Assembly (NCBI GenBank): GCA_003141835.1
Contig: PLNR01000006.1
Span: 78,558 to 142,557 of the forward strand
Reading direction: 5' to 3'
Length of the DNA: 64,000 nucleotides
Origin: Candidatus Omnitrophota bacterium
GTDB lineage: Bacteria > Omnitrophota > Gorgyraeia > Pluralincolimonadales > Pluralincolimonadaceae
Both the position numbers and the translations under genes were made by a program. Below, piece by piece: positions 1-23,812 of this stretch (position 1 is the stretch's first letter; every line of letters begins with the position of its first letter). The notes under the pieces were generated by a model, which saw only the letters and a list, made by a program, of their open reading frames with translations, ran no database searches and was not told where the DNA came from.

Positions 1-1128
1 ACCCGACCACCTGTAAGGAAGGAACCCCTTGTCCGGGTACCAGCCCATGCTCGGCGTGGTGCCGTTGTCCATCATCCACGCCCAATCTACCCTGTCACAG
101 ATCTCCTTCGCGAGGCCTTCTATCTCGGTGTCTTTGTAATATTCCCCGACGAAGACGACGCCGGCCAGGAGGAGGGTCGTATCTATCGAAGAGAGCTCGC
201 AATCGCCCCAGCGCAGGCCTGTCTTCATGTCCAGGAAATGGTAATAGAAGCCGTGGACGCATTCAGCCCTGTCCCTGAAGAATTTAAGCGTCGTGATTAT
301 CCTCTCCTTGACCTTATCCTCGGGTATCCATCCGCGCTTCGCGGCAACGCACAGCGCCGGCAGTCCGAACCCGACCGAGGCGATGCTCGCCATAGGCGAA
401 TTATCCTTGAGGAGGGTATTGCAGGTGTCCTTGATAAGCCCGTTCTCGGGATTCGCCTCCTCCCAGAAGAACATGCATGCCGAATGTTCGATGAGGTCAA
501 GGAACTGGTCGTCGGTCATCGTAGACAGCTTAGGAGCCTCCCACCTGACGGGTTGCGGCTTGATGACACCGGTCCTTTCGCCCGACAGGGTAAGCCCGTC
601 CAAATAGATCACGCCGGTGAACGGCTGTCCGTAATCGTTATGGAAAGTGATCGAAAAATTATCCATATTATACCAGTCGTATATCGATTTGAAATCCGCC
701 AGCGGGACCGTGACTTTCTGCCATTCCGTAGTCACGCCTGCCGGGAGGTATGTCTTTATATCCAGCTTTTCCTCGAACGACGAGCCGTCTTTCATCCCTA
801 CTTTAAATACTTCTCCGCCCTTCTCGCCCTTCACCCAGAAAACGACGATCCCGTATTTGCTCAGGTCCTTTCCGACCAGGCCGAACCAAAAACCCGATTC
901 CTGTTTCTCTCCGCTTACGTTATATTTCAGCTGGCATACCTTCGCGCCTTCGGTGCGGGCGCCTTGCGAGGTATAGGACTGCTTCGCTGTCCCCTTATTC
1001 TCCCATGCCCCCTGCATCGCGCTCGGGATAAGCAAATCCCCGCCGGAACTCTCCTGCGCGCGGGCGATCCCGTTAAATGACAGGACCAGCACCGTTGTCC
1101 ACGCCAACACCCTCATCGCCGTCAGCAT
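1..1128 (-). CDS. Secreted glycosidase-like protein (partial; runs off the left edge): N-terminal signal peptide, CBM-like beta-sandwich domain, then an (alpha/alpha)-barrel-like domain
   Basis: Reverse-strand translation from the ATG at 1128 gives MLTAMRVLAWTTVLVLSFNGIARA (signal peptide), then FWFGLVGKDLSKYGIVVFWVKGEKGG...IYLDGLTLSG. This beta-sandwich segment resembles the C-terminal domain of the 18855..20084 protein. It is followed by ...WGDCELSSIDTTLLLAGVVFVGEYY...WYPDKGF. A GGAGG Shine-Dalgarno overlaps the stop codon of the upstream gene. The ORF is missing from the supplied track because it is truncated by the window edge. Confidence 0.6.
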   Translation of the reverse strand, partial: MLTAMRVLAWTTVLVLSFNGIARAQESSGGDLLIPSAMQGAWENKGTAKQSYTSQGARTEGAKVCQLKYNVSGEKQESGFWFGLVGKDLSKYGIVVFWVKGEKGGEVFKVGMKDGSSFEEKLDIKTYLPAGVTTEWQKVTVPLADFKSIYDWYNMDNFSITFHNDYGQPFTGVIYLDGLTLSGERTGVIKPQPVRWEAPKLSTMTDDQFLDLIEHSACMFFWEEANPENGLIKDTCNTLLKDNSPMASIASVGFGLPALCVAAKRGWIPEDKVKERIITTLKFFRDRAECVHGFYYHFLDMKTGLRWGDCELSSIDTTLLLAGVVFVGEYYKDTEIEGLAKEICDRVDWAWMMDNGTTPSMGWYPDKGFLPYRWSG

Positions 1129-1137
1129 CACTGCCTC

Positions 1138-2049
1138 CTATTTTGTTCCCCACAAATATGCGAAAGTGAAAAGTATCCCGAAAGAGAGATGTATCGCTAT
1201 CGTAAGAGCGTTTGCCGGCAACAGCTCTTTTATCTTGTCGAAATACATATCGACAATCTTTATCGCTTTTATAGCGACAGGCAATGTCACAAATGTTATT
1301 ACCGCTGTGAACGGGAAGATCCTGGCGGCTATGCCGGCCAGGACTATGACATACACCGATATTAAAAAGAACTTGTAATATCCGACCGCCTTCGCCTTCC
1401 CTACCATGACTACGGTATTGTTCTTGCGCGTCGCCTTATCCGCCTCGTAATCCGGGAATTGGTTTATGAATTGTACGAGCGAGATTAGTATAGCGATGGG
1501 GATAGAGGCGAAAAACGCCTCCCACGAAAGCTTCTTCGCCTGGACATAATATGCGCCCAGTACCATAAGCGTCCCGAACCCGAAACCCGTCGTCACCTCG
1601 GATAGCCGCGTATAGCCTATCTTCAGAGGGTCGGCGTTATAAAAATACGCGATAAATACTCCCACGATACCGATCAGCAGGATCGTATACCCTCTGCAAA
1701 TGTAATTGAGATAAAGGCCGATCGCGCTTCCCGCCGCGAAGCAGATAAATCCCGCCACTTGCACCTGCCGGGGCTTGAGCGTTCCTTCGCGCAAGAACCT
1801 GACTCCGCCGCTAAAAGGCGTGGGTGTCTTGTTGATGACATCGTTTCCCGTCTTGAAATCGTAATAAGCGTTGGTGAAATTGAGGCCGCCGTGTATGAAT
1901 ATGCCGCCTATCAAGGTAAGCCAGAAGAGCCCCCAATCAAAAACCCCCGTATCGTGGCGTGCGACCGCCGCACCCAACGCGATGGGGATTATAGCCGCCG
2001 TAAAGAATTGCGGCCTGACCGCTGTTATCCAAAGGAGTATCCTGTTCAT
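1138..2049 (-). CDS. UbiA-family aromatic prenyltransferase (MenA/UbiA-like)
   Basis: 303 aa, polytopic membrane protein. Carries the UbiA-type Asp-rich region NAYYDFKTGND and a second Asp motif FPDYEADK. Its start overlaps the stop of the upstream adenosyltransferase gene (ATGA). Confidence 0.75.
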   Translation of the reverse strand: MNRILLWITAVRPQFFTAAIIPIALGAAVARHDTGVFDWGLFWLTLIGGIFIHGGLNFTNAYYDFKTGNDVINKTPTPFSGGVRFLREGTLKPRQVQVAGFICFAAGSAIGLYLNYICRGYTILLIGIVGVFIAYFYNADPLKIGYTRLSEVTTGFGFGTLMVLGAYYVQAKKLSWEAFFASIPIAILISLVQFINQFPDYEADKATRKNNTVVMVGKAKAVGYYKFFLISVYVIVLAGIAARIFPFTAVITFVTLPVAIKAIKIVDMYFDKIKELLPANALTIAIHLSFGILFTFAYLWGTK

Positions 2050-2573
2050 ATTTTAAGCGGGTCGGAGGTTCTTTCCTCTCGGACGGCAAGGACGAATAAA
2101 AAGTCTGAAAGCCTGTTAAGGTAGGCCAGTATACAGGGATCTACCTTGGCCTTGCGGCCAAGTTCGACAACACAGCATTCGGCCCTGCGGGCGACCGTCC
2201 TTGCTACATGCAGGACCGCCGAACTCTCATTGACCCCCGGAACAATAAACCCCGAAGGCATATGGACGCGGCCTTCCATCAGGTCTCCGAACTGTTCGAG
2301 CATCTTCACGTCGCAATTTTTCACCGGGGGGATGGCGGCCTTCCTGCCGCCGGACGAGATGCATCCTATCACTTTGAAAAGATCCCTCTGTATGAGCGCG
2401 ATCTTCTTTTTCACGGAGCGGTCTTTTATCTTCGCCTTCGCGAGCCCGAGGAAAGAGATCAACTCGTCTATCGCGCCCTGTGCTTTTATGCACGGGTCGC
2501 ATTTGGAAACGGCCTTCCCGCCGCAGAGACGTGTCCTGCCGCCGTCGCCTGACCTTGTCGTGATACGCATCAC
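2046..2573 (-). CDS. ATP:cob(I)alamin adenosyltransferase, PduO/MMAB type
   Basis: 175 aa. N-terminus MMRITTRSGDGGRTRL matches the conserved RIYTRTGDxGxT opening of PduO-type adenosyltransferases. An ATGA overlap couples it to the neighbouring genes. Confidence 0.85.
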   Translation of the reverse strand: MMRITTRSGDGGRTRLCGGKAVSKCDPCIKAQGAIDELISFLGLAKAKIKDRSVKKKIALIQRDLFKVIGCISSGGRKAAIPPVKNCDVKMLEQFGDLMEGRVHMPSGFIVPGVNESSAVLHVARTVARRAECCVVELGRKAKVDPCILAYLNRLSDFLFVLAVREERTSDPLKI

Positions 2574-2980
2574 CTGGCCCCTCGGCTAACTTCAGGGACA
2601 ATCCTGTACCTGGCGGTCACAGTCGTCTTCATGCCCCCGCGCACGCTGAACTCTCCTGTCACTATACACCACTTCGGTTTGCACGATGAGACGACGTCTT
2701 TGAGTATCCTGTTCACCGCGTTCTCGTAGAATATTCCCATGTTCCTGAAGCCGAGGATGTAATATTTCAGGGACTTCAGCTCTATGCATGACCTGCCCGG
2801 CATATATCTTATCGTTATCGTACCAAAATCCGGAAGGCCGGTCTTCGGGCAGACCGAGGTAAACTCGGGTATCTCGATCTTTATATCATAATCTTTGTGA
2901 AAACTCGGAAAGGCCTCGATAGGCGGCAGTCTGTCATTTATGCCCTTGCCGGCATGCTTAGCAGTATATTCTTTCTTCAT
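2570..2980 (-). CDS. queF: NADPH-dependent 7-cyano-7-deazaguanine reductase QueF
   Basis: 136 aa. The signature EFTSVCPKTGLPDFGTI contains the QueF catalytic Cys motif. Size fits the unimodular QueF type. Confidence 0.9.
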   Translation of the reverse strand: MKKEYTAKHAGKGINDRLPPIEAFPSFHKDYDIKIEIPEFTSVCPKTGLPDFGTITIRYMPGRSCIELKSLKYYILGFRNMGIFYENAVNRILKDVVSSCKPKWCIVTGEFSVRGGMKTTVTARYRIVPEVSRGAR

Positions 2981-3007
2981 GAGTTTATTCGCGCTCCCTG
3001 GGATGTT

Positions 3008-3991
3008 TTACTGGCTCGACAGAAAAAACCCGGAAACCCTGAAATATATAAGAAGGGTTATGATATCGCACGTGGCCAGGACTATCGGCCCGGATGACAA
3101 CGCCGGGTCTATCTTGAACAGCTTGAACAAAAACGGCAGGCAGGAACCGATGACGCCTGAAAGGATTATCGACATCGACATCGAGATCGCCAGCGCCGCG
3201 CCCAGGTTCGCGTTTGCCTGCCACAGAGTGGCGACCCCGCCTACAAGCAAGCCGCATATAAGCCCTACGATGATCCCGACGGACATCTCCTTCTGGAGCA
3301 GCCACCTGACGTCCTTGAAAGACGCCCTGCCGAGGGCCATGTTCCTTACCACTATCGTTGACGACTGCATCCCGATGCTTTCGGAAAGACCAAGCACTAT
3401 CGGGATAAAAAGCGCCAGCGCTATGACCGACTTCATGTCGCGTTCGAACCATCCGAGGATGAACGCGGACACGAACCCGCTGATTATGCTTATCGCGAGC
3501 CACGGCAACCTCAGCCTGACTATTCGCGGTATTGACCTTGAGGTTATCTCGTCGACGCCGGTACCGACTATCTTGGCGATATCGTCTTCGGCCTCGAGTT
3601 CGGCTATATCTACCATCTCATCGGCCGTTATTATGCCGACGAGTTTCTCTTCGTTGTTGACTACCGGCAGCGCGAGGAACCTGTGCCTTATGAAGTACCT
3701 TACCACCTCTTCCTGGTCCATCTCCGCGTGCACCTTTACCACGTTCTTGATCATTATATCCCTTACGTGTACGCCCGGCGCGTGGCTCAAAAGGTCGCGC
3801 ATCTGGACTACGCCTACAAGATGGCCGCGGGGATCTACCACATATATATAGGAGGGCTTTGATACTTTCTCCAGCGAGGCGGTGCGGAAATGCTTTATAG
3901 TCTCTTCTATCGTGGATTCGCCGGAGACCGCCAGGAACTCATTCTTCATTATAGAGCCCAGCGTCTCGCCTTTTACCCTTCTAATGGTCAT
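3008..3991 (-). CDS. mgtE: Magnesium transporter MgtE
   Basis: 327 aa. A CBS-pair region (VVDPRGHLVGVV...GIITADEMVDI) is followed by the MgtE transmembrane domain with acidic selectivity residues (ISGFVSAF...ESIGMQSS). Confidence 0.88.
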   Translation of the reverse strand: MTIRRVKGETLGSIMKNEFLAVSGESTIEETIKHFRTASLEKVSKPSYIYVVDPRGHLVGVVQMRDLLSHAPGVHVRDIMIKNVVKVHAEMDQEEVVRYFIRHRFLALPVVNNEEKLVGIITADEMVDIAELEAEDDIAKIVGTGVDEITSRSIPRIVRLRLPWLAISIISGFVSAFILGWFERDMKSVIALALFIPIVLGLSESIGMQSSTIVVRNMALGRASFKDVRWLLQKEMSVGIIVGLICGLLVGGVATLWQANANLGAALAISMSMSIILSGVIGSCLPFLFKLFKIDPALSSGPIVLATCDIITLLIYFRVSGFFLSSQ

Positions 3992-7561: not shown

Positions 7562-8535
7562 CTTTTAGTCTCCTGTTTAGGCGGCATCCAATATATGAAT
7601 AACCCGAAACCCGCCCAAGAAAGTTCCCGTATCCTCTTTATTATGCTGAGCGCGACCCCCATCTCCCCTCCTATGCCGAGGGCCGCCAGCGCCGCGTAAC
7701 CCGCGCCTTCCTGGACGCCTATCGCCGCCGGAACGAAGAAGAAAGCCGAATTAGCCGTCTTCATGAAAACTTCTATCACGAACGCTTTTACCCAATCGAC
7801 CGGGACGCCCAAGAAATATAATATTATATAGACCTCTATCGCTCCCGCGGCCCACCCAAGCAGGTGGAACGCGAAAGAACCGCAAAACCGCAGCCGCTCC
7901 TTAAGGTAAAAATCCCCTATTGTCCTGTCTATCTCTTCGATGCGGTCCTGCTTATCCTCAAAGGTCCCGCTTAATTTAAACCTGCGCGCGAACCGCAGTC
8001 CCACCATGAACAGCCCCTTCCTCTGGAGCAGGAGGAAGACTACAAATAACCCTAGGACGCCTATGAACGTCCAAAGTATCCCGGCGGCGACAACGCTTTC
8101 AAGCCGCAAAAATTTCAAGGCCAGCACGACGCCTATGAGCAGGAACGCGATCTTGCTCAGGAAGAGCGTGGTCTTGGCGATCACGACGCTGGCAAGCCCG
8201 TCGACCATATCGACGCCGTAGCGCCTGTTCAGAAGGATCGCCTTGACCGGTTCCCCTCCGATATACGCCGACGGGGTCGTGTAGTTAAGCGCTTCACCCG
8301 CCTGGCGCACCAGGAAAAACCTCCAAAGGCCCGGTAGTTTCACTCCTCTCCTGAATGACAGCCGCCAGCCCATCGTGTCGAAAAAATATATTACGAGATA
8401 AGCGAATATCACGGCCAATATGCGCCAATTTAGCGATACTACCTGGCTCCATATAAGCGCAGGGCCGGACCTCGCGATTATCCAGGCGAAAAGCGATACC
8501 GCGACGATAAATATTATTTTTTTAAATAAGCTCAT
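7558..8535 (-). CDS. UPF0104/flippase-like membrane protein (HpnL-like; lysyl-PG synthase C-terminal domain-like)
   Basis: 325 aa, about 8 predicted TM helices. It has the UPF0104 architecture usually found next to lipid glycosyl/phosphotransferases. It sits between the hpnA-like gene and a CDP-alcohol phosphatidyltransferase. Confidence 0.6.
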   Translation of the reverse strand: MSLFKKIIFIVAVSLFAWIIARSGPALIWSQVVSLNWRILAVIFAYLVIYFFDTMGWRLSFRRGVKLPGLWRFFLVRQAGEALNYTTPSAYIGGEPVKAILLNRRYGVDMVDGLASVVIAKTTLFLSKIAFLLIGVVLALKFLRLESVVAAGILWTFIGVLGLFVVFLLLQRKGLFMVGLRFARRFKLSGTFEDKQDRIEEIDRTIGDFYLKERLRFCGSFAFHLLGWAAGAIEVYIILYFLGVPVDWVKAFVIEVFMKTANSAFFFVPAAIGVQEGAGYAALAALGIGGEMGVALSIIKRIRELSWAGFGLFIYWMPPKQETKR

Positions 8536-9179
8536 TACTGCCGGCCTGTCAAATATTTGAAGTTCACAGCCAAAAGGACGATGCAGAATATATTGGCGCC
8601 TATCGCTCCCAGCCAGAGGAAAAGTTCCATCCTGTTCAGGACCGCGAAAAGCAGGACCACGAGCGAAAGATCACCGGCGCAAAAGACCTCGATCGCGCGA
8701 TCGGCGGCCGTTATCCTTTTTATCTCCCCCTCCGGCGCTTTCGGCATGCCATGGATGGCCGGGCCGAAGTTCATCGTCTTCTGCAGTATCGCCACAAATG
8801 TCGACAAAAACGTTCCTATGCCCGCCGCGACACCCAGGAATAGCATTATCGGGTCCTGGGTAAGGCGGAAGAGCCCCACGCTGATCCCGACAAAGGTAAG
8901 CGTGTGGATGCAGCAGTCTACCACAGTGTCCATCCAGCTCCCGAACGTCGAAGAGAGCCCCCTCGCCCGCGCCACTTCCCCGTCGCAATTGTCGAGGATA
9001 TAAAACATCTCGAACATGACGGCGCCGGCTATAAAGCCCGCTTTTGTCCCGGCCGAGAAAAAAAGGAACGCCAGGATCCCGGCCAGCCCCCCCAACAGGG
9101 TTATGAAATTAGGGTGCAGTCCGGACCTGATAAAAAAACCCGTGAACGGCGCAGCCAAAACGCGATTTATGCTTCTCAT
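8535..9179 (-). CDS. CDP-alcohol phosphatidyltransferase family protein
   Basis: 214 aa membrane protein. The signature D-x2-DG-x2-AR...G...D-x3-D is present as DNCDGEVARARGLSSTFGSWMDTVVD. Confidence 0.85.
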   Translation of the reverse strand: MRSINRVLAAPFTGFFIRSGLHPNFITLLGGLAGILAFLFFSAGTKAGFIAGAVMFEMFYILDNCDGEVARARGLSSTFGSWMDTVVDCCIHTLTFVGISVGLFRLTQDPIMLFLGVAAGIGTFLSTFVAILQKTMNFGPAIHGMPKAPEGEIKRITAADRAIEVFCAGDLSLVVLLFAVLNRMELFLWLGAIGANIFCIVLLAVNFKYLTGRQ

Positions 9180-9212
9180 CCCCCAACCCTCCCGGTCCCC
9201 GCCTTCCGGCGA

Positions 9213-9929
9213 TCAGCGTATCTTCAGGGATTCGGCTTTCTTTATATCTTCCGGAAAATCTACCTCGGTCCACTTCAACCCGGTTATCTCCTCGATCCCG
9301 GCCGGGACGTGCCTGATAAAATTATCGAGCGCTTCTTCGTAATCGGCCCCCCGGTCCAGGGCAATAGTCTCTTCGACGGCTTTAAGGAATTCCCTCCTGT
9401 GAGCGGCCGATGTCTTGAAAAAACCGACACCCTCGCCCACCTCATCGTGTTTGCGCGTTATCCGCCGCGCTATCTGGGTAACCCTCCAGCCGAGGACCGC
9501 GACCTTCATCTCCTCCCCGCTCTCGCTGAAATGCCTGTCTATAAGAAAACAATTTTCATTTTTGGAGCCGATAAGCCTTCCGATCAGGCGCGATTCAAAA
9601 ACGACGTCGGCGTCCATCAACAAAAGGTCATCCGCTGTTGAAAACTCCCTCCGCGCGACCCACAGGGAGACGATACTGCCGAGTTTATATTCCCTGTTTT
9701 CGATATATCTTATCTTCGCGCCGTTATGCTCTTCTCCGACCGCCTCCGCAATCATCTCCTTAAGATAGCCGGTGACCAAGCATATATCCCTGACGCCGGC
9801 GGCCGCGAGGGAATCGAGCATGCGTTCCAGGATGGTCCTTCCACCGATACGGATAAGGGATTTCGGGGTCTTGTCAATAATGGGTTTTAGGCGGTTGCCG
9901 ATCCCGGCCGCAAGTATTATCGCTTTCAC
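9213..9929 (-). CDS. Nucleotidyltransferase (LicC/phosphocholine- or aminoethylphosphonate-cytidylyltransferase-like)
   Basis: 238 aa. N-terminal MKAIILAAGIGNRLKP...PKSLIRIGG is the sugar/phospho-alcohol nucleotidyltransferase fold signature. Confidence 0.75.
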   Translation of the reverse strand: MKAIILAAGIGNRLKPIIDKTPKSLIRIGGRTILERMLDSLAAAGVRDICLVTGYLKEMIAEAVGEEHNGAKIRYIENREYKLGSIVSLWVARREFSTADDLLLMDADVVFESRLIGRLIGSKNENCFLIDRHFSESGEEMKVAVLGWRVTQIARRITRKHDEVGEGVGFFKTSAAHRREFLKAVEETIALDRGADYEEALDNFIRHVPAGIEEITGLKWTEVDFPEDIKKAESLKIR

Positions 9930-11041
9930 CCCGCCGCCCTCTTTCCTTTATGCGGGCCAGGTTTCCTTAGCACGGACTTTAACGACGCCAAAAACCTGCG
10001 CGCATCACCGGCGGTTATCTGCCCCATATTCGCTATCCTGAAAATGACCTTCTTGAGTTTTGACTGGCCCGCGTAGATGATAAAACCTTCCGCTTTCAGC
10101 GCATCATGCAACCTGGTGTAAGTCATCCCTTTAGGGAGGCGCAGCGCGGTTATCGTATTCGAAAGGTATTTTGGCGCGATGAGGTATTCAAAACCGGCGG
10201 CCTCGAAACCTTTCCTTAGAAAGACCGCCAGGTTTTTATAACGTTTAACGCGGTTATTCACCCCTTCTTTCAAAAGCTCGTCGAGCGCGACATCCAGGGC
10301 GTAAAACGCCTGGACCGCCGGCGTAAAGAGCGGCTCGCCTTTCTTCTGCCCCTCGAGATTCGAGGGGATATCGAAATACAACGAACGCGGGGCGATCTTT
10401 TTCAGCCCTGGCAGGGCGGTCTTTTTTACCAGCACAAACGATATCCCGGGGATGCCCTCTATGCACTTGTTGGCGGTCCCGACGCAAAGCCCGACGCCCG
10501 CCTTACCGGGATCCAGTTCTTCGCCGCCCAACGCGCTTATGGAATCCAGGAGATAGAGTTTTTTGTATTTCCTGCACAGCTTGCCTATGCCGTATACGGG
10601 GTTCAAGATCCCGGTCGACGTCTCGTGATGCACCATCGCTATAACGGAGATATCTTTATTTTTCCTTATCTTTTCTTCAGCGGCATCTATATCCGGCGTC
10701 TTTTTCACGTCGGAGGCAAGGTTTATAAGGCCTATGCCGTGCCTTCTCGCTATCTCGGCTATCCTTCCGGCGTAAATACCGTTATTAACCACCAACATCT
10801 TTTTGCCCCGCGGGACAGACGAGACGACCGCGGCCTCCAATGCCGCCGTACCTGAACCGGTAAAGAATACAGCCTCGTAAGCTCCGGCTATGCCGAACGC
10901 CCGGAGCAGTTTTTTCGCGCAGCCTGTCATGAGCCTGCCGAACTCCGGTTCCCGGTGGCACATATCCGGCGCGAGAAGCGACCTCCTCACCTTTTCCTTG
11001 ATATTCACCGGCCCGGGATTCAACAGTACGTATCTTTTCAT
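9926..11041 (-). CDS. Class V aminotransferase, 2-aminoethylphosphonate:pyruvate (PhnW)/serine-pyruvate type
   Basis: 371 aa. N-terminus YVLLNPGPVNI...HREPEF matches the LLTPGPxx...HRxxxF pattern of the PhnW/AGXT family. The PLP Lys region is TANKCIEGIPG. Confidence 0.7.
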   Translation of the reverse strand: MKRYVLLNPGPVNIKEKVRRSLLAPDMCHREPEFGRLMTGCAKKLLRAFGIAGAYEAVFFTGSGTAALEAAVVSSVPRGKKMLVVNNGIYAGRIAEIARRHGIGLINLASDVKKTPDIDAAEEKIRKNKDISVIAMVHHETSTGILNPVYGIGKLCRKYKKLYLLDSISALGGEELDPGKAGVGLCVGTANKCIEGIPGISFVLVKKTALPGLKKIAPRSLYFDIPSNLEGQKKGEPLFTPAVQAFYALDVALDELLKEGVNNRVKRYKNLAVFLRKGFEAAGFEYLIAPKYLSNTITALRLPKGMTYTRLHDALKAEGFIIYAGQSKLKKVIFRIANMGQITAGDARRFLASLKSVLRKPGPHKGKRAAG

Positions 11042-11589
11042 GCGTTTTTGAACCTTTTCGCTATCTCAGGAGGGGCGATGCCGACCCTCGGCACTTTTTC
11101 CGAAGGATCGCGCCCCACTTTTACCAGGATAAAACTCGGCCCCTCTTTTTTCAGGCAATCCTTGAATGCTTCGGCAAAATCCTGCCCGAGGTCTTTCTTT
11201 ATGACGTTTTTTATCCCGCATCCTTCGGCTGCCCGCGCCAGGTCCACCCGGGGGGAGATGGTCGGCTGGCCGCCCGTCGAATCATAGCATTCGTTATCGA
11301 GCACTACGTGGATATAGTTTTTTGGTGAGATATTCGATATCATCGAAAGCACGCCGAAGTTCATGAGCAGGTTACCGTCCCCGTCCAGGACGACGACCTT
11401 CTTTCCCGGCCGGGCCATCGCGAACCCCAGGCCGATCGATGACGCCTGGCCCATAGATCCGAGCATATAGAAATTCCGCGGCCGGTCTTTCGCGTTGAAG
11501 GCATCGCGGGAGATGAACCCGTTGGCGCAGACGACATATTCGTCGCCTATAAGGGAGATTATCTTCGTTATCGCCTCGCGCATGATCAT
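11038..11589 (-). CDS. Phosphonopyruvate/sulfopyruvate decarboxylase beta subunit (ComE-like, TPP-binding C-terminal domain)
   Basis: The TPP motif GDGNLLMNFGVLSMISN...N is present. The track start at 11619 (MHLHQ...) is an N-terminal extension that overlaps the alpha gene. The ATG at 11589 (MIMREAIT) forms an ATGA overlap with the alpha stop. Confidence 0.75.
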   Translation of the reverse strand: MIMREAITKIISLIGDEYVVCANGFISRDAFNAKDRPRNFYMLGSMGQASSIGLGFAMARPGKKVVVLDGDGNLLMNFGVLSMISNISPKNYIHVVLDNECYDSTGGQPTISPRVDLARAAEGCGIKNVIKKDLGQDFAEAFKDCLKKEGPSFILVKVGRDPSEKVPRVGIAPPEIAKRFKNA

Positions 11590-12059
11590 TCCAGCGTGTC
11601 CTCTTTGATGAAGATGCAATATGGCTTGCCTTTCGCGATCTCTTTATCGGCCTCGGCCAGGGCCGCGGCGAGATCCTCCCTGCCGCATACGCTGTTGCGG
11701 ATACCGAATGTCTCCATAAGCTCGACGCAATGCCTGCCCATGATTATGTGCTCCGGGGCGTCCTTCCCGCCGTATCCGCGGAAACTGACAAGCATAAGGA
11801 CCGGGATGTCATAGATCATGTTGAGGCTGGTGAGGACATTCAGTGAATAGCCCAGGCCGGAATTCTGCATCAGGACGCAGGGCTTTCTTCCGCCGAGATA
11901 CGCGCCGGCCGCCATGCCCAGCGCAGTGTCCTCCCTGACCGCCGGGATATATTCCCCGGCGAGGGCGGTTATTATGCCTCCCAGGAGGGAACAGGGCACA
12001 CCGGTAAAAAAATCGAACCCCAGGCCTTTAAGTCTCGTCTTTAGCGTTGTCGCATCCAT
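11586..12059 (-). CDS. Phosphonopyruvate/sulfopyruvate decarboxylase alpha subunit (ComD-like, TPP pyrimidine-binding domain)
   Basis: 157 aa. FFTGVPCSLLGGI...ALGMAAGAYLGGRKPCVLMQNSGLG is the N-terminal domain of the Ppd/ComD family. Confidence 0.75.
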   Translation of the reverse strand: MDATTLKTRLKGLGFDFFTGVPCSLLGGIITALAGEYIPAVREDTALGMAAGAYLGGRKPCVLMQNSGLGYSLNVLTSLNMIYDIPVLMLVSFRGYGGKDAPEHIIMGRHCVELMETFGIRNSVCGREDLAAALAEADKEIAKGKPYCIFIKEDTLE

Positions 12060-12070
12060 ACCGCTTCCTA

Positions 12071-12931
12071 TCAGACCGCCCTGGCGAACTTCCTGTATAT
12101 TATATTGGATATCTCGTCTTCGAGGTCATGCAGGAATTTCAGTTCGGCGTCGGCCCTCTGGTATTCGTTCACATCCATATACCTGAGAAAATCCCTCAGG
12201 CCCATGTCAACGATCTCGTAGGGGATAGCCGGCTGGCCCATCTCGCCCAGCCTTATTATTATTGCCTTCATGAGAGCCTCCGGCTTCAGCTCGACGTCCC
12301 AGACCTTGCTCTTTGCCACTTCTTTACGGAACGGGATTATATTCTCCGGCTTATAGAAATCCCCCCTGAACTTCATGTAATCTATTTTCGACCAAAAATC
12401 CCACTGGGCCGAACAGAGCGAACAATTGGGGAGGAATATCTGGACGGGGTTGTTATAGGTATCGAAATAGGTGTGCGAGAGCAGGCTCACCGCGGCCGAG
12501 AGCTTGTCCGTGGATATCTTGGTCACTCTCCCGTCGCCGACCACATCCCTGGCGTCGTCGAGCAGCTTAAGGAATCCGGGCGCCTCTTCGCTTATGCGCG
12601 TGAAAGCGTATATCTTCTTTTCGAGCTTCTGCCTTTTTGCGGCGTCGGCCGGCGGCGTGCCGTCAAATTCTTTCCGCAGCTGCGCCGCCTTCCCGTCCAC
12701 GAACCTGCCCAGGGCCGCAAAATCTTTCTTCTCCGCCTCCGGCCTCGCGAAAAGCTCGAGCGTGACGTCGAGGAAATCAGGCTGGTTCTCGAGTATATGG
12801 GCGTAGACCCTGTGGAAATGCGCGGGTTTCTGGTCGATAACGGGTATCACGGAATATATCGCGGCGCCAAGGTCAAGCTTACTGGAATCCAAAAGCCTCG
12901 CCGCCAAAACCATATGAGTCCCCCAGTCCAT
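12071..12931 (-). CDS. Hypothetical protein, possible Zn-dependent phospholipase C / S1-P1 nuclease-fold protein
   Basis: 286 aa with no signal peptide. N-terminus MDWGTHMVLAARLL resembles the W-x-x-H zinc-ligand start of the Zn-PLC/P1 family. Several conserved His/Asp follow (AHFHRVYAH, SHTYFD). A strong AAGGAG Shine-Dalgarno lies 5 nt upstream. Confidence 0.4.
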   Translation of the reverse strand: MDWGTHMVLAARLLDSSKLDLGAAIYSVIPVIDQKPAHFHRVYAHILENQPDFLDVTLELFARPEAEKKDFAALGRFVDGKAAQLRKEFDGTPPADAAKRQKLEKKIYAFTRISEEAPGFLKLLDDARDVVGDGRVTKISTDKLSAAVSLLSHTYFDTYNNPVQIFLPNCSLCSAQWDFWSKIDYMKFRGDFYKPENIIPFRKEVAKSKVWDVELKPEALMKAIIIRLGEMGQPAIPYEIVDMGLRDFLRYMDVNEYQRADAELKFLHDLEDEISNIIYRKFARAV

Positions 12932-12944
12932 GTTTCTCCTTTAT

Positions 12945-13016
12945 GGGGACGTCCCATTGGGGGACGCTCCATTTATCTATTTTCATCTAATGGGGTGTCC
13001 CCCAATGGGACGTCCC
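12945..13016 (-). repeat. Inverted-repeat element, copy 1 (two 26-nt arms made of GGGGACGTCCC-like palindromic units around a 21-nt A/T-rich core)
   Basis: Arm A (12945-12970) is ggggacgtcccattgggggacgctcc. Arm B (12992-13017) is ggggtgtcccccaatgggacgtcccc, the near-exact reverse complement of arm A. The element fills the gap between the hpnH stop (13017) and the Shine-Dalgarno/ATG of the 12071..12931 gene. Confidence 0.8.
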
Positions 13017-14015
13017 CTAGGTGAACTGCCAGCCGATCAAAGTCATTATATCCCTGAATGATTTCCCTTCGAGCACGCTGGCCGGCTCGAAGCCGCAATG
13101 GACCGCGCATTCCGCGCAGCGCGGGTTCTTGCTTTTGGGCCCGTACTTCTTCCATTCGGTCTTTTCGATAAGTTCCTTGTAAGTGGCGAAATGCTTGTCC
13201 GCAAGCTGGTAACAGGGCGAACGCCATCCTATGGGGTTGCGCGTCGGCGTCGACCAGGGCGCGCAATCCAGGTCGCGCTTGCCCTGCACAAATTCAAAAT
13301 ATAGCGGCGAGCCGAGAAAATTGTATTTTTTGAACTCCGGCTCAAGTTTCCGGAAGAAATCCGCGAGTTCTTTCTTGCGGAAGAAGAACTCCTCGCCTAC
13401 CTGCGGGTACCCGTAGGCCGGCGATATCAGGAAACCGTCCACCCCGGCGCCCTGGAGGGTCTTGAACAATTGCTTAAGCTCGTTTATATCCGTCTGCCTG
13501 TAGATGGTCGTATTGGTGCAGACGAAGAAACCCTTCTTCTTCGCCGCCTTTATCGCCTCGATCACCCTGGCGTATGTCCCCTTAAGCCCGGTTATCGCGT
13601 CATGCGTCTTCTCCAGCCCGTCGATATGGAAATTTACCATGAGGTTTCCGCTCGGCTTCAGCTTGTCGATCTTGTCCTTGAAAAGCAGGCCGTTGGTGCA
13701 GAGGTATATATATTTTCCCTTCCTGGCGAGTTTCTCTATCAGCTCGGAGATATACGGGTAGACGAGCGGCTCTCCGCCGCAGATCGACACTATCGGCGCC
13801 CCGCACTCATCCGCCGCCTTGAGGCATTCGGCGACGGTCATCATCTTGTGCAGGTCGCGCTTATATTCCCTTATGCGCCCGCAGCCTTCGCACGATAAGT
13901 TGCACATTAACGACGGCTCCAGCATCAAGACAAGCGAGAACCGTTTATTGTTCCTGAGCTTGTTCGCGATTATGTGTTTCGTCATTCTGGCCGTTAAGCC
14001 GGGCTTGAACCTCAT
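13017..14015 (-). CDS. hpnH: Radical SAM adenosyl-hopene transferase HpnH
   Basis: 332 aa. Radical-SAM Cys triad CNLSCEGCGR, plus C-terminal cysteines (CAPW...CYQ...CAECAVHCG) typical of HpnH. Lies immediately downstream of shc. Confidence 0.85.
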   Translation of the reverse strand: MRFKPGLTARMTKHIIANKLRNNKRFSLVLMLEPSLMCNLSCEGCGRIREYKRDLHKMMTVAECLKAADECGAPIVSICGGEPLVYPYISELIEKLARKGKYIYLCTNGLLFKDKIDKLKPSGNLMVNFHIDGLEKTHDAITGLKGTYARVIEAIKAAKKKGFFVCTNTTIYRQTDINELKQLFKTLQGAGVDGFLISPAYGYPQVGEEFFFRKKELADFFRKLEPEFKKYNFLGSPLYFEFVQGKRDLDCAPWSTPTRNPIGWRSPCYQLADKHFATYKELIEKTEWKKYGPKSKNPRCAECAVHCGFEPASVLEGKSFRDIMTLIGWQFT

Positions 14016-14018
14016 TTT

Positions 14019-15920
14019 TCAGACCTTTGTCTTTCCGCGGTTGGCCGCATATTCCGAGAGGGCAATAAGAGGAAAATAAACGGAATAAAGTTCGTAACGC
14101 AGGTAGCATACCCTCGGAAAACCCGTCCCGGTAAAACTATCCTCTTTCCAGTTGCCGTTCGCCTCCTGGCTCCCTATGAGATAATCTATTCCGCGCGCGG
14201 CTGCGCCGCTCTCGTGGTCGCCTGCGGCGAAGAGTATGAAAAGCGCCCAGGCCGTCTGCGAAGCGGTCGATGGGCCTTTGCCTTTCTTGAACGGGTCCTC
14301 GTAAGTCGCCGCCGATTCCCCCCACCCCCCATCGTCATTCTGGACGCCGTATATCCATTTCGCCGCGGCTTCGAGCTCGCCCTTCGACGATCCCCCGGAC
14401 GAGAAAGAAAGGCCGCGCGCGGCAAGGAACGTGCCGTATATATAATTCACTCCCCACCTGCCGTACCACGTGCCGTCGGCTATCCTGTCTTTTTTCAAAA
14501 ATCTTATCGCGTCCTTTAGCGGGGATTTTTTAGCGTCGAAGCCGAGCCGGCCCAAAAGCTCGCACGTCCTTCCGGTTACATCCGCGCACGTTGGGTCGAG
14601 CATCGCATTATGGTCCGAAAAAGGCACCTTGTTCAGGAAACGCTTGTTGTTATCCCTGTCGTAAGAGCTGAACCCGCCGTCGCTGGACTGCATCTTCAGC
14701 ATCCAGTCAAGGCCGCGGTCGAATCCGGCTTTCTTCTGCGGCTCTTCCGTCCCCATATCTATCTGCGTCAACCCGAGCAATACCTGCGCGGTATCGTCTA
14801 TATCCGGGTAAAATTCGTTCCTGAACTGGAAATACCATCCTCCGGGCGAAGCGTCCCCGGCCTTTACCTTCCAATCGCCGGTCTCGTTCACCTGCTTCGA
14901 GAGGAGCCAGCGCCCGGCCTTCCTCATCGCATCGTGGCCCTTCGGGAAACCCGATATCCCGAGGGCGTATGCGCAGAGCGCCGTATCCCAGACCGGCGAT
15001 ACGCAGGGCTGCATCTCCGCCTCATTGCCGTTATCTATAGTTAATTTCAGAACTTCTTCGAGATTCGATTTCAAGAGCGGATGGTCGTTCTTATAGCCCA
15101 GGCAGCTCAATGCCATTACGGAATTTATCATTGCCGGATAGATGGCGCACAAGCCGTCGCTCTTGTCGAACCTTTTTATCATCCATTGCCCGGCTTTCTT
15201 CACTGCCGCGCCCTTAAAGAACGCTAATCTCAATTTATATAAGGTCTTTATCGTGCCATCCAGGAAGAGGAAAAGGTTCTTCCAACTTACCACCCGCATG
15301 TCCCATCGTATGCCGCAATCTTTCGTCCTGTGTCCGGCCGTGTAAAGCTCATCGACGCTGAAATTTTTCGCGAGGGGCCGCACCGGCCTGGAAGCCCAGA
15401 TCACCGAAAGCGGCACGACGATCGTCCTCGTCCAGGCGCTGAAATCGTAAATATTCACCGGGGACCACTCCGGGAGCAGGATAAGCTCCGGCGGTATAGC
15501 CGGCGCTGCGTCCCAGTTCCCGAGGCCGAACATGGCCAGGTAGAACCTGTTATAGCTGTTGGACTTTTCGATTCCGCCGAGGCTTAATATTATCCGGCGG
15601 TCCCGCGCCATCAGCTGGTTCCCTTCTTCGAAGCCTTTAAGCTTCAGCGCCATATAGTTCTTTATGGTGGCGTTGAGTTCCGGCGGGCCGCCCGGATAGA
15701 CCGGCCATCCCCCGTCCTCAAGGCGCCCGGCCAAAATAAAATTCACAAGTTTACCTTCCAGCTCCTCGTCCCTTATGCCAAGGAACCGCAGAAGGAAGAT
15801 AGTATCCGCCTCCAGGCCCAGGTCCATATGGAAATTCGAATGGAAATGGCCGTCGGCATCCTGTTTGCCCAGGATATACTCCTGGGCGCTGTTTATCGCG
15901 TTCGAGAGTCTCTCGTTCAT
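14019..15920 (-). CDS. shc: Squalene-hopene cyclase
   Basis: 633 aa. Catalytic DIDDTA motif (DxDDTA) and multiple QW repeats (GGWxxxxxG...). The C-terminal GGWGE segment is present. Confidence 0.93.
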   Translation of the reverse strand: MNERLSNAINSAQEYILGKQDADGHFHSNFHMDLGLEADTIFLLRFLGIRDEELEGKLVNFILAGRLEDGGWPVYPGGPPELNATIKNYMALKLKGFEEGNQLMARDRRIILSLGGIEKSNSYNRFYLAMFGLGNWDAAPAIPPELILLPEWSPVNIYDFSAWTRTIVVPLSVIWASRPVRPLAKNFSVDELYTAGHRTKDCGIRWDMRVVSWKNLFLFLDGTIKTLYKLRLAFFKGAAVKKAGQWMIKRFDKSDGLCAIYPAMINSVMALSCLGYKNDHPLLKSNLEEVLKLTIDNGNEAEMQPCVSPVWDTALCAYALGISGFPKGHDAMRKAGRWLLSKQVNETGDWKVKAGDASPGGWYFQFRNEFYPDIDDTAQVLLGLTQIDMGTEEPQKKAGFDRGLDWMLKMQSSDGGFSSYDRDNNKRFLNKVPFSDHNAMLDPTCADVTGRTCELLGRLGFDAKKSPLKDAIRFLKKDRIADGTWYGRWGVNYIYGTFLAARGLSFSSGGSSKGELEAAAKWIYGVQNDDGGWGESAATYEDPFKKGKGPSTASQTAWALFILFAAGDHESGAAARGIDYLIGSQEANGNWKEDSFTGTGFPRVCYLRYELYSVYFPLIALSEYAANRGKTKV

Positions 15921-16705
15921 ATGTTAAGGCAGTATTTGACTATTTTTTCAAGCTCTTTTATGTCTACGGAAGTGTTTTTGCAAGGCCCTTCAGGGCGCTT
16001 GTTCGGGATGCCGAAGACCGGCATCTTCGGGGCGGTGTCCTGTATGCCTGAGATAAGGTCCCTCTCGCACGCGACGCCTATCACCGCGTCGGGATTGTTG
16101 TCTTTAACGGCTTTCCTGGCTTCATCGCCTCCAAAAGCCGTGTAAGCCACAAACTGGTATTTTTCGCCTAGTTCTTTTACCTTGGCCCTTACCTCGGCCG
16201 AGAGACAGCGCGGCAGGAGGACGAGTATCTTCTTTGAGCTCTTTCCCGTCCGCGTAGCGTACATAAGGTCGTTATGGAATTTGACGAAGGAATTGCCTAT
16301 CCTGTCTCTCGCTATGCCGGATATCCCGGCCAACCTCACCGCTCCGGAGAGTAAGACGCGCAACGAGATCCGCCTGACAAAATAAGACGGCGCAAGCTTG
16401 ACTTTCAAGAGCGCAGATAAGACCTGCGATAGGTACCAGGCAGCGAGTAAAGAAGCGGAAATACAGAATGCCGCACCGGCCATGCCGGTAAACCCGGGCC
16501 CAAAGCTTTCAAAACGCGGCAACGCGAGGTACCAAAACAACCAAACTCCAAGCAAGACAAGGATTAATACCAAAAAAGAAAAGAAGATGAATAGCGATTT
16601 CGGTGCGTCGCTCGAGCTTCCGCCCTTGGAGCCGGGCTGCCAATCGGCCCACTCGTCCCCCAATAACCTGTCTTCCAGCCTCTTACCCTGCCCTGTCTCT
16701 TTCAT
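15917..16705 (-). CDS. DUF116-family membrane protein
   Basis: 262 aa. Two N-terminal TM helices, then the conserved KKILVLLPRCL motif (DUF116 LLPHCL-like). Stop overlaps the shc start (ATGA). Confidence 0.55.
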   Translation of the reverse strand: MKETGQGKRLEDRLLGDEWADWQPGSKGGSSSDAPKSLFIFFSFLVLILVLLGVWLFWYLALPRFESFGPGFTGMAGAAFCISASLLAAWYLSQVLSALLKVKLAPSYFVRRISLRVLLSGAVRLAGISGIARDRIGNSFVKFHNDLMYATRTGKSSKKILVLLPRCLSAEVRAKVKELGEKYQFVAYTAFGGDEARKAVKDNNPDAVIGVACERDLISGIQDTAPKMPVFGIPNKRPEGPCKNTSVDIKELEKIVKYCLNI

Positions 16706-23684: not shown

Positions 23685-23703
23685 GTTGTAGCTCCTTTTT
23701 AGC

Positions 23704-23781
23704 GGGGACGTTCCAAAAAGGGTACACTCCACTTTCTTATTTATCATCTGAAAGTGGGGTGTCCCTTTTTGGGACGTCCCC
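23704..23781 (-). repeat. Inverted-repeat element, copy 2 (homologous to 12945..13016)
   Basis: Arm A (23704-23730) is ggggacgttccaaaaagggtacactcc. Arm B (23756-23781) is ggggtgtccctttttgggacgtcccc, the reverse complement of arm A with 3 mismatches. The A/T-rich core resembles that of copy 1 (agatgaWaaaUa). The element sits between a sigma70-like promoter and the aldolase Shine-Dalgarno. Confidence 0.8.
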
Positions 23782-23784
23782 ATA

Positions 23785-23812
23785 ATTATACCCTATTTGC
23801 CTTATTTTTCAA
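23785..23812 (-). promoter_or_regulatory. Sigma70-type promoter (TTGAAA-16-TATAAT) firing into IR element copy 2 and the aldolase gene
   Basis: Minus strand: -35 TTGAAA (plus 23807-23812), 16-nt spacer, -10 TATAAT (plus 23785-23790). The predicted TSS falls in the first Gs of the IR arm. Confidence 0.55.

Follow-up and report, generated by a model that had tools for sequence, protein, structure and literature searches.

Inverted repeat doublets at two gene junctions of an Omnitrophota bacterium are probable REPIN-like mobile elements

The 64-kb stretch of Omnitrophota DNA analysed here (the window) contains two copies of a long inverted repeat, which we interpret below as REPIN-like REP doublets. 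The closest homologues of its proteins bear names that also point to Candidatus Omnitrophota. The genes next to both copies are all on the minus strand. Copy 1 (12945..13017, minus strand), recognised as an inverted repeat and by its fold, lies between an hpnH-like gene and an open reading frame (ORF) for a protein of 286 aa. The hpnH-like ORF (13017-14015, minus strand) has Radical_SAM and DUF3463 domains, and a gene for squalene-hopene cyclase is directly upstream. The hpnH-like gene ends in TAG (13017..13019, minus strand), and the element overlaps this stop codon by one base, starting on the mRNA strand with the G. At its far end the element adjoins ATAAAGGAGAAAC-ATG of the 286-aa ORF with a gap of 0 nt, and not the 1 nt given in an earlier note on this DNA. 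The Shine-Dalgarno sequence AAGGAG of this ORF (12936..12941, minus strand) is 3 nt past copy 1, and its ATG is at 12931-12929. The 286-aa ORF had no match in Pfam. Past it are genes for a split TPP enzyme, a class-V aminotransferase, a nucleotidyltransferase and a CDP-alcohol phosphatidyltransferase, which together look like a phosphonate-lipid cluster. Since a promoter scan found no promoter near copy 1, we place the element inside a polycistronic transcript. Copy 1 is identical, base for base, in a contig from an independent ENA assembly (ERZ27254250 k141_277284), and is therefore not an assembly artefact.

Copy 1 has two arms of 29 nt (12945-12973 and 12989-13017) that are 93% complementary and are separated by 15 nt, as determined by a repeat search. 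The 26-nt arms and 21-nt core described in the earlier note are the same structure, before additional ATT/AAT pairs are counted. The element had been placed at 12945-13016; it is indeed there, with its end one base further, at 13017. In the mRNA sense, the 5' arm (12991..13017, minus strand) reads GGGGACGTCCC-ATTGG-GGGACACCCCA, an exact match to the arm pattern that we call a C-type REP unit. It is identical to the arms around a transposase gene in a related contig (L165, see below). The second arm (12945..12971), read on the plus strand, is GGGGACGTCCC-ATTGG-GGGACGCTCCA, a variant unit that differs from the C-type arm by two changes, A to G and C to T. These produce two mismatches on the mRNA strand, and G-U and U-G pairs on the plus strand. 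The A/T-rich spacer between the arms (12972..12990, minus strand) provides the hairpin loop and the A-T pairs that close it.

Copy 2 (23704..23781, minus strand) is in the 5' leader of an lsrF-like operon. On one side is a gene for an M48 peptidase, and on the other a gene for an LsrF-type aldolase of the DeoC family, followed by one for a PAS-GGDEF-HD protein. As the earlier note had proposed, the sequence at 23704-23781 is a homologue of copy 1; the two align with 77% identity. The 5' arm of copy 2 in the mRNA sense (23755..23781, minus strand) is GGGGACGTCCC-AAAAA-GGGACACCCCA, again an exact match to the pattern. The second arm (23704..23731, read on the plus strand) is GGGGACGTTCC-AAAAA-GGGTACACTCCA, a T-type unit with a 1-nt insertion. 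A promoter scan identified a sigma-70-like promoter (TTGAAA-16-TATAAT, 11 of 12 matches; 23785..23812, minus strand) that stops 3 nt short of copy 2. The Shine-Dalgarno sequence of the aldolase gene, AAGGAG, is at 23692..23697 (minus strand) and its ATG is at 23684-23682.

The arms of both copies are ~27 nt long and have the form GGGGACGTYCC-N5-GGGACACYCC. The two-unit arm pattern had three matches in the 64-kb window when up to three mismatches were allowed, compared to 0.01 expected, and none of 100 shuffled sequences reached three, so the repeat is beyond chance, as had been argued. The 5-nt linkers are not the same in the two copies, yet the pair inside each copy is complementary: copy 1 has ATTGG/CCAAT and copy 2 has AAAAA/TTTTT.

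Both copies are predicted to fold into hairpins, and the very stable stem that the earlier note anticipated was found. On the mRNA strand, the RNA folds had energies of -54.1 kcal/mol for copy 1 and -50.2 kcal/mol for copy 2; on the opposite strand, the values were -61.0 and -57.5 kcal/mol. The z-scores for both copies and both strands were between -10 and -12. The hairpins are followed on the mRNA strand by AUAAAGGAG and GCUAAAAAGG. Neither is a U-tract, and a terminator scan of the minus strand called neither hairpin. Based on this, we rejected an intrinsic (Rho-independent) terminator, in agreement with the earlier note. Pairing of GUCCCC in the 3' arm with GGGGAC in the coding sequence was also considered, and it was not present in the MFE or centroid folds.

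A single C-type arm can also fold. The lone 27-nt arm GGGGACGTCCCATTGGGGGACACCCCA, modelled as ssDNA, had the structure ((((..(((((.....))))).)))) with an energy of -8.9 kcal/mol and a z-score of -2.3, laid out as GGGG / AC / GTCCC - loop N5 - GGGAC / A / CCCC. This predicted self-folding is the behaviour expected of a REP unit. The degenerate T-type arm of copy 2 folded poorly on its own.

We found that close relatives lack the element at both junctions. In related loci (L151-L157) with homologues of the 286-aa ORF that are 84-95% identical, the spacer between hpnH and this ORF is 19-33 nt of unrelated sequence and the element is absent. The position of the hpnH stop codon is unchanged, and the start of the next gene, ATGGACTGGGG (MDWG), is the same as in the window. 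Similarly, relatives with aldolases that are 85-95% identical (L158-L163) have a leader of 17-25 nt, compared to the 78-nt element in the window. These relatives keep the promoter TTGAAA-N16-TATAAT, the AAAAAGGAG Shine-Dalgarno sequence and ATGGATTGGGG. The promoter next to copy 2 is thus native host sequence, outside the element, because it is conserved in relatives that do not have the element; the Shine-Dalgarno sequence of the aldolase gene is likewise kept in relatives and is host sequence. We had considered that the Shine-Dalgarno sequence and first codons (ATGGAYTGGGGGACTCA, MDWG) were part of the element. This was rejected since relatives without the element also start with MDWG. In addition, aldolases of the LsrF type have DWG as a motif of their own.

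Not one unit was found in the loci from relatives (L151-L164, ~225 kb), indicating that both copies in the window are recent, lineage-specific insertions. Neither is a clean insertion: ~13-20 nt of ancestral spacer is missing at each filled site relative to the relatives. The search for such arms elsewhere that the earlier note had suggested came up empty in these loci; arms were found in 31 metagenome stretches, described below. The element is not conserved at orthologous junctions. In close relatives these are empty, with promoter, Shine-Dalgarno sequence and start codons intact.

The empty sites bear directly on the notion that the repeat is a dedicated cis-regulatory RNA, such as a thermosensor, a riboswitch-like RNA or a processing site, that is conserved for its function as RNA. 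The hairpin is very stable, the linkers show a compensatory change between the two copies, and a position next to a Shine-Dalgarno sequence would suit a role in translation. However, the orthologous leaders of close relatives do without the element. In addition, no Rfam family matched: Rfam 15 at the gathering score gave no hit in the window and only one tRNA in 16 related loci, and in E-value mode copy 1 gave only sub-threshold, generic miRNA-hairpin noise. Arms are also found alone, past stop codons, between convergent genes and around a transposase gene. The stem has C-A mismatches on the mRNA strand, with the G-U pairs antisense. The complementary linkers are not evidence of selection on RNA, because inverted duplication of one unit would produce them anyway. 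We conclude that this explanation, including the thermosensing element put forward earlier, is largely refuted by the empty sites, and we consider it highly unlikely.

The linkers are informative about how doublets form. Among 16 distinct doublets of this subfamily, 12 have perfectly complementary linkers, with 11 different linker sequences. Linkers that are complementary but diverse fit a model in which doublets arise from, and spread as, inverted copies of one unit. Most of the dispersed doublets are heterodimers, in which one arm is GGGGACGTCCC..GGGACACCCC and the other is GGGGACGTTCC..GGGACACTCC. Consequently, one strand has C-A mismatches where the other has G-U pairs; in the window copies the mismatches fall on the mRNA strand and the G-U pairs on the plus (antisense) strand. 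The same asymmetry between C-type and T-type arms is seen in copies from Clostridia and Aminicenantes. The possibility that the plus-strand G-U pairs reflect an antisense RNA was dropped, as the asymmetry is more simply that of a heterodimer of two variants, comparable to the Y/Z BIMEs. Heterodimers are frequent in REP families, and a long palindrome without mismatches is unstable (PMC3733652).

To define how widespread the element is, we scanned genomes, one per species, for the pattern GGGGACGTYCC-N40-70-GGRACGTCCCC. The outer pair of 11-mers was found at no fewer than 119 genome loci (that is, at least 119) in more than 10 phyla, often several times per genome or MAG. The hosts among the matches listed were Myxococcota, other 'Deltaproteobacteria', Spirochaetales, Collinsella, Clostridia, Aminicenantes, Elusimicrobia, Omnitrophica, Acidobacteriota, Planctomycetota and others. 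Among these listed matches, a long, lineage-specific hairpin lies between the 11-mers, and complementarity frequently runs on beyond them. Also among the matches listed, the sites are mostly just past stop codons, and convergent gene pairs outnumber divergent ones (29 vs 12, p=0.012); both the stop-codon placement and the gene-pair counts are from crude ORF calls. There was no target-site duplication in the 120 copies examined among the matches listed. The flanks have no conserved tetranucleotide; the 5' flanks vary, and CCTA is one of many sequences seen there. A full-text literature search for the 11-mer strings returned nothing relevant. In viral contigs there was one match in 2.9 million.

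These results bear on two other explanations. The first is that the repeat is an array of operators for a dimeric or tetrameric transcription factor, a function that had been suggested in the earlier note. The repeat has palindromic half-sites (GGGACGTCCC) that recur at a spacing of 15-16 bp, and copy 2 overlaps the expected transcription start. On the other hand, copy 1 has no promoter nearby, the sites in other genomes are mostly downstream of genes (among the matches listed), and relatives keep the promoter next to copy 2 and are missing the site. A neighbouring gene of the LacI family is present in element-free relatives too. Long lineage-specific stems and complementary linkers would be of no use to an operator in duplex DNA. 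Recognition of the repeat by a protein, which the operator proposal implied, is still probable, but the protein associated with it is an arm-flanked Y1/HUH transposase (below) and not a regulator. We give this explanation almost no weight.

The second is that the repeat is a MITE that came from an insertion sequence of the DDE type and would have terminal inverted repeats and target-site duplications. A short, repeated element with inverted repeats and insertion polymorphism is what one would expect of a MITE. In contrast, the 120 copies examined among the matches listed had no target-site duplication, the 11-mers are not termini because complementarity often extends outside them, and the only recurrently associated gene is that of the Y1/HUH transposase. 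A MITE is thus just as improbable as an operator array. We also rejected an integron attC site: the ends are GGGGACG ... CGTCCCC and not RYYYAAC ... GTTRRRY, there are no arrays, and there is no integrase among the recurrent neighbours.

A scan of metagenomes for the arm found in the window, GGGGACGTCCC-N5-GGGACACCCC, yielded 31 stretches with an exact arm, alone or in a doublet. Some have full doublets like those in the window, for example at the lptB-hpf and dnaK-dnaJ junctions of other Omnitrophota. Many have a single arm with no partner. One contig of 46 kb (L128+L134) has the transposase gene described below and four or more arm sites, of which one is a doublet and three are solo arms. 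For comparison, the window has two doublets in 64 kb.

We found a transposase gene recurrently associated with the arms. In an all-against-all clustering of ORFs from 150 loci, a protein of ~200 aa directly adjoined arms in six loci. It matches Pfam Y1_Tnp (PF01797) with E values of 1e-15 to 4e-18. In NCBIfam, it fits the model for the REP-associated tyrosine transposase best, with scores of 69 and 63 bits, compared to 23 bits for IS200; these scores fall below the curated cut-off of 80 bits for the REP-associated model. The protein has an HUH motif (NHxHLL) and a Tyr motif (RYIERNP). A sequence search of the PDB gave no match to the transposase, and the C-terminal ~80 residues had no match in Pfam even at E<=5.

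Inverted arms flank the Y1/HUH gene in five independent related contigs (L128/L148, L165, L131/L133, L065 and L045). In L128/L148 and L165, the gene lies between CCTA-GGGGACGTCCC-ATTG(A/G)-GGGACACCC and an inverted copy, GGGGTGTCCCC-CAAT-GGGACGTCCCC. By sequence, the arms that bound the transposase gene in these contigs are the arms found in the window. The transposase of L165 is a homologue with 78% identity. Transposases that are ~50% identical have arms that co-vary with them, GGGGCCATCCC-N5-GGGGCCACCC and GGTGCCATCCC-N5-GGTGCCACCC. Both window copies, and also the arms of L128, L165 and L167, have an inner unit, GGGGACAC, that is an exact fit to GGGGWSAS (GGGG[AT][CG]A[CG]). There is no transposase gene inside the 64-kb window. 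Based on the flanked genes in related contigs, we infer that the source genome probably has an active cognate RAYT. The conserved HUH and Tyr motifs suggest that this enzyme would bind and cleave single-stranded REP DNA.

Taken together, these findings make it very likely that each copy is a non-autonomous REP doublet (REPIN-like or BIME-like) mobilised by a Y1/HUH RAYT of the 'TIRYT' variant. Mobility, and not conservation as a regulator site or a riboswitch-like RNA, would then explain why the repeat is shared between sites. Several properties of REP systems are present. The C-type arm of 27 nt is a short (20-40 nt) imperfect palindrome with its own hairpin. Inverted units with a short spacer form a long hairpin, and 16 distinct doublets of this kind were found across the loci. 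Presence of the element at a site differs in relatives, with no target duplication. The architecture that defines REP/RAYT systems, a Y1/HUH gene between inverted units, is present in the related contigs. The canonical 5' GT[AG]G at the foot of the hairpin is absent from the arms, which places the element outside the GTAG super-family, the RAYT-like enzyme notwithstanding. We conclude that a known kind of mobile DNA, the REPIN/RAYT-type system, is present in a new host phylum, the Omnitrophota.

In the simplest form of this model, a doublet consists of two inverted REP units of ~27 nt around a short A/T-rich spacer. The RAYT would copy the doublet in trans, with transposition proposed by homology to known systems. 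The transposase gene would be elsewhere in the source genome, itself between two such arms. By analogy to IS200/IS605 and to TnpA-REP of E. coli, the enzyme would act on hairpins in ssDNA and would not generate a target duplication.

Insertion at these positions could affect the host genes. Because copy 2 begins 3 nt past the -10 box, the mRNA of the lsrF-like operon is predicted to start within the first arm, at about position 23778. It would then have, almost at its 5' end, a hairpin of about -50 kcal/mol that leaves the Shine-Dalgarno sequence free in the fold. Near-terminal 5' hairpins protect bacterial mRNA against 5'-end-dependent degradation. The hairpin of copy 2 probably does so as well. 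By analogy to the REPs of E. coli, the hairpin of copy 1 is probably a barrier to 3' exonucleases or a partial attenuator. It may also interfere with termination at hpnH or with initiation at the next gene. In the MFE fold of copy 1, UUCACCU at the 3' end of hpnH is brought up to AGGAGAA and paired with it. Work by Liang, Rudd and Deutscher in 2015 reportedly found that a REP no more than about 15 nt from a stop codon lowers expression of the upstream gene by way of ribosome stalling and trans-translation. The distance of copy 1 from the hpnH stop codon is zero. An mRNA-stabilising or translational effect, as put forward in the earlier note, is thus plausible, but any effects of the two hairpins on expression would be by-products of insertion.

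It is possible that the doublets arrived by transposition and are now kept since their hairpins tune expression. According to this notion, copy 2 stabilises the mRNA of the lsrF-like/PAS-GGDEF operon from its 5' terminus, and copy 1 is a decay barrier or a translational uncoupler that separates the hopanoid genes (shc-hpnH) from the phosphonate-lipid-like genes. The placement is precise, with the elements 3 nt past the -10 box, 3-6 nt ahead of a Shine-Dalgarno sequence and overlapping a stop codon. The layout is the same at the lptB-hpf and dnaK-dnaJ junctions of other Omnitrophota, and the MFE fold brings the hpnH 3' end beside the Shine-Dalgarno sequence. REPs are reported to stabilise upstream mRNA, to attenuate or terminate transcription and to affect translation (backgrounds of PMC3733652 and PMC6006769). 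In addition, the asymmetric doublet is oriented alike, with the C-type arm first in the direction of transcription, in all five of the tandem-gene cases (p=0.06). This bias is too weak to interpret, and it could equally be explained by strand-specific transposition of ssDNA coupled to replication. Furthermore, relatives do without the element at both junctions. We regard retention for function as a possibility worth keeping in mind, though an unlikely one.

A broader version is more doubtful still. It holds that the near-invariant GGGGACGTYCC/GGRACGTCCCC module found in more than 10 phyla belongs to a single, widespread RAYT/TIRYT clade whose DNA recognition code is unusually fixed, and that the doublets here have been co-opted as 5'-terminal and intercistronic hairpins that set expression of the hopanoid/phosphonate-lipid and lsrF-like/c-di-GMP genes.

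The preferred interpretation, that the copies are REP doublets moved by a RAYT, accounts for a conspicuous repeat by ordinary mobile DNA and avoids its annotation as a riboswitch, operator or terminator. It also extends REPIN/RAYT-type systems to the Omnitrophota, an uncultured phylum. The empty sites in close relatives indicate that the doublets are currently moving, and the elements could be used as strain-level markers in metagenomes. Because the two insertions are in sensitive positions, one at a transcription start and one at a junction of stop codon and ribosome binding site, they are natural experiments on the effect of REP hairpins on operon expression.

Among known systems, the CGTC-tagged REPs (Di Nocera et al. 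2013, PMC3733652) share with our elements the sequence CGTC, loops of 4-5 nt and head-to-head dimers. They have an unpaired tag, a stem of 8-9 bp that begins with A-T pairs, a CCA tail and no transposase. In our elements, CGTC is paired within a GACGTC core, the stems are rich in G+C and there is an associated transposase, and we rejected membership in this group. The BIMEs of E. coli are heterodimers of two variants, Y-type and Z-type REPs, as the elements here are of C-type and T-type units. In both, the stem has fixed mismatches because the arms are two slightly different REP variants. BIMEs are also found between co-transcribed or convergent genes and are reported to act on mRNA stability, termination and translation; their sequence is unrelated to that of the elements described here. 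The subterminal hairpins of IS200/IS605 elements, and the miniature elements derived from these (PATEs), have in common with this system the Y1/HUH fold (PF01797), recognition of hairpins in ssDNA and the absence of target duplication. The transposase here is a far better match to the RAYT model than to the IS200 model (69 vs 23 bits), and its gene is apparently single-copy with dispersed hairpins.

REPINs are two inverted REPs and a spacer that are mobilised by RAYTs (PMC3337134, PMC3116915). Like the REPINs of Pseudomonas fluorescens and E. coli (Bertels & Rainey 2011), the elements described here have inverted palindromic units that form a long hairpin around a spacer, are dispersed in extragenic sites, and have a single Y1/HUH gene between inverted units. 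In both cases target duplications are absent and insertion sites vary among close relatives. Unlike REPINs, the units in the window have no 5' GT[AG]G tag, and each is a tandem pair of GGGGAC-NN-YCC sub-repeats. In addition, the host is from the Omnitrophota rather than the Proteobacteria, and the copy number seen was low (2 in 64 kb).

The RAYT-like 'TIRYT' genes have flanking inverted repeats with GGGGWSAS, and these repeats are also found as dimers or clusters (Di Nocera et al. 2013, PMC3733652). Quentin et al. (2018) give the motif in the form GGGG[AT][CG]A[CG] (PMC6006769). The elements described here are similar to these TIRtrons/TIRYTs in that GGGGACAC fits GGGGWSAS, the arms flank a Y1 transposase with HUH and Tyr motifs, and the repeats are also present in genomes as dimers or clusters. 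The published cases are from other phyla, for example Acidobacteria and Stenotrophomonas. Proteins of subclass 2.1 mostly have a C-terminal HTH or DnaA_C domain; Pfam finds none in the transposase described here, and membership in this subclass is that of a candidate. Quentin et al. reported no REP-like hairpins for subclass 2.1 (PMC6006769), whereas the arms and doublets here clearly fold. Our results indicate that the GGGGWSAS-type repeats of RAYT-like transposases can be true hairpin doublets.

In the window, the minus strand at 8535-16705 carries hopanoid genes that run without a break into a phosphonate-lipid-like gene set. The hopanoid genes encode a DUF116 protein, a squalene-hopene cyclase and an HpnH-like radical SAM protein. 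The phosphonate-lipid-like set encodes a 286-aa protein that matched no Pfam family, followed by a split TPP decarboxylase, a class-V aminotransferase, a nucleotidyltransferase and a CDP-alcohol phosphatidyltransferase. Relatives continue with genes for LPG_synthase_TM, an epimerase, LytB and a PNP_UDP_1 nucleosidase. The linkage between the hopanoid and phosphonate-lipid-like genes is kept across Omnitrophota and extends to homologues that the 286-aa protein has in anammox bacteria and Methylomirabilales.

We found that several copies of the element start exactly on the final G of a TAG stop codon (TA/GGGG). This overlap occurs in the window (TAG at 13017-13019) and in two loci from other genomes or metagenomes, L064 (about 3041-3043) and L146 (about 11916-11918). 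The arms that flank transposases are preceded by CCTA; overall, the flank of the element is not conserved. The element may insert preferentially after TA, or it may provide the G of the stop codon.

At L135 (9680-9760), a solo arm lies directly upstream of a near-consensus promoter, TTGACA-N17-TATACT. Promoter-proximal arm positions therefore exist in other genomes too. In some genomes the GGGGACGTCCC unit is arranged head-to-tail in arrays rather than as hairpin doublets. Such arrays were found in L023 (321-407), L090 (3654-3810) and L106 (724-865), with periods of 34-65 nt, and L086 (4938-5082) has an array of at least five repeats of GGGGACGTCCCATTCGGGT with a 19-nt period.

Separately, in the Omnitrophica contig L166, precomputed Pfam matches indicate that a GATase/SIS-domain glutamine-fructose-6-phosphate aminotransferase-like gene (249-3635) contains an intein whose endonuclease domain is of the LAGLIDADG type.

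A larger conserved noncoding element, found in MAGs of Eubacteriales and in one Aminicenantes MAG, has the same doublet embedded off-centre in it. This larger element occurs in multiple copies, measures about 410-560 bp and ends in terminal inverted repeats of ~21 nt; the conserved part is its right half (GCGCAGTTCCGCAGCCGCCGAGAAGAGCG...GTGAGGGAATGGCGTTAAAAATCTGA). It is present at L036 (4331-4892) and L013 (4613-5022), and also in L027, L035, L041, L055, L003, L067, L104 and L150. It matches no Rfam family. A composite MITE is one possible identity, a structured RNA not yet described another.
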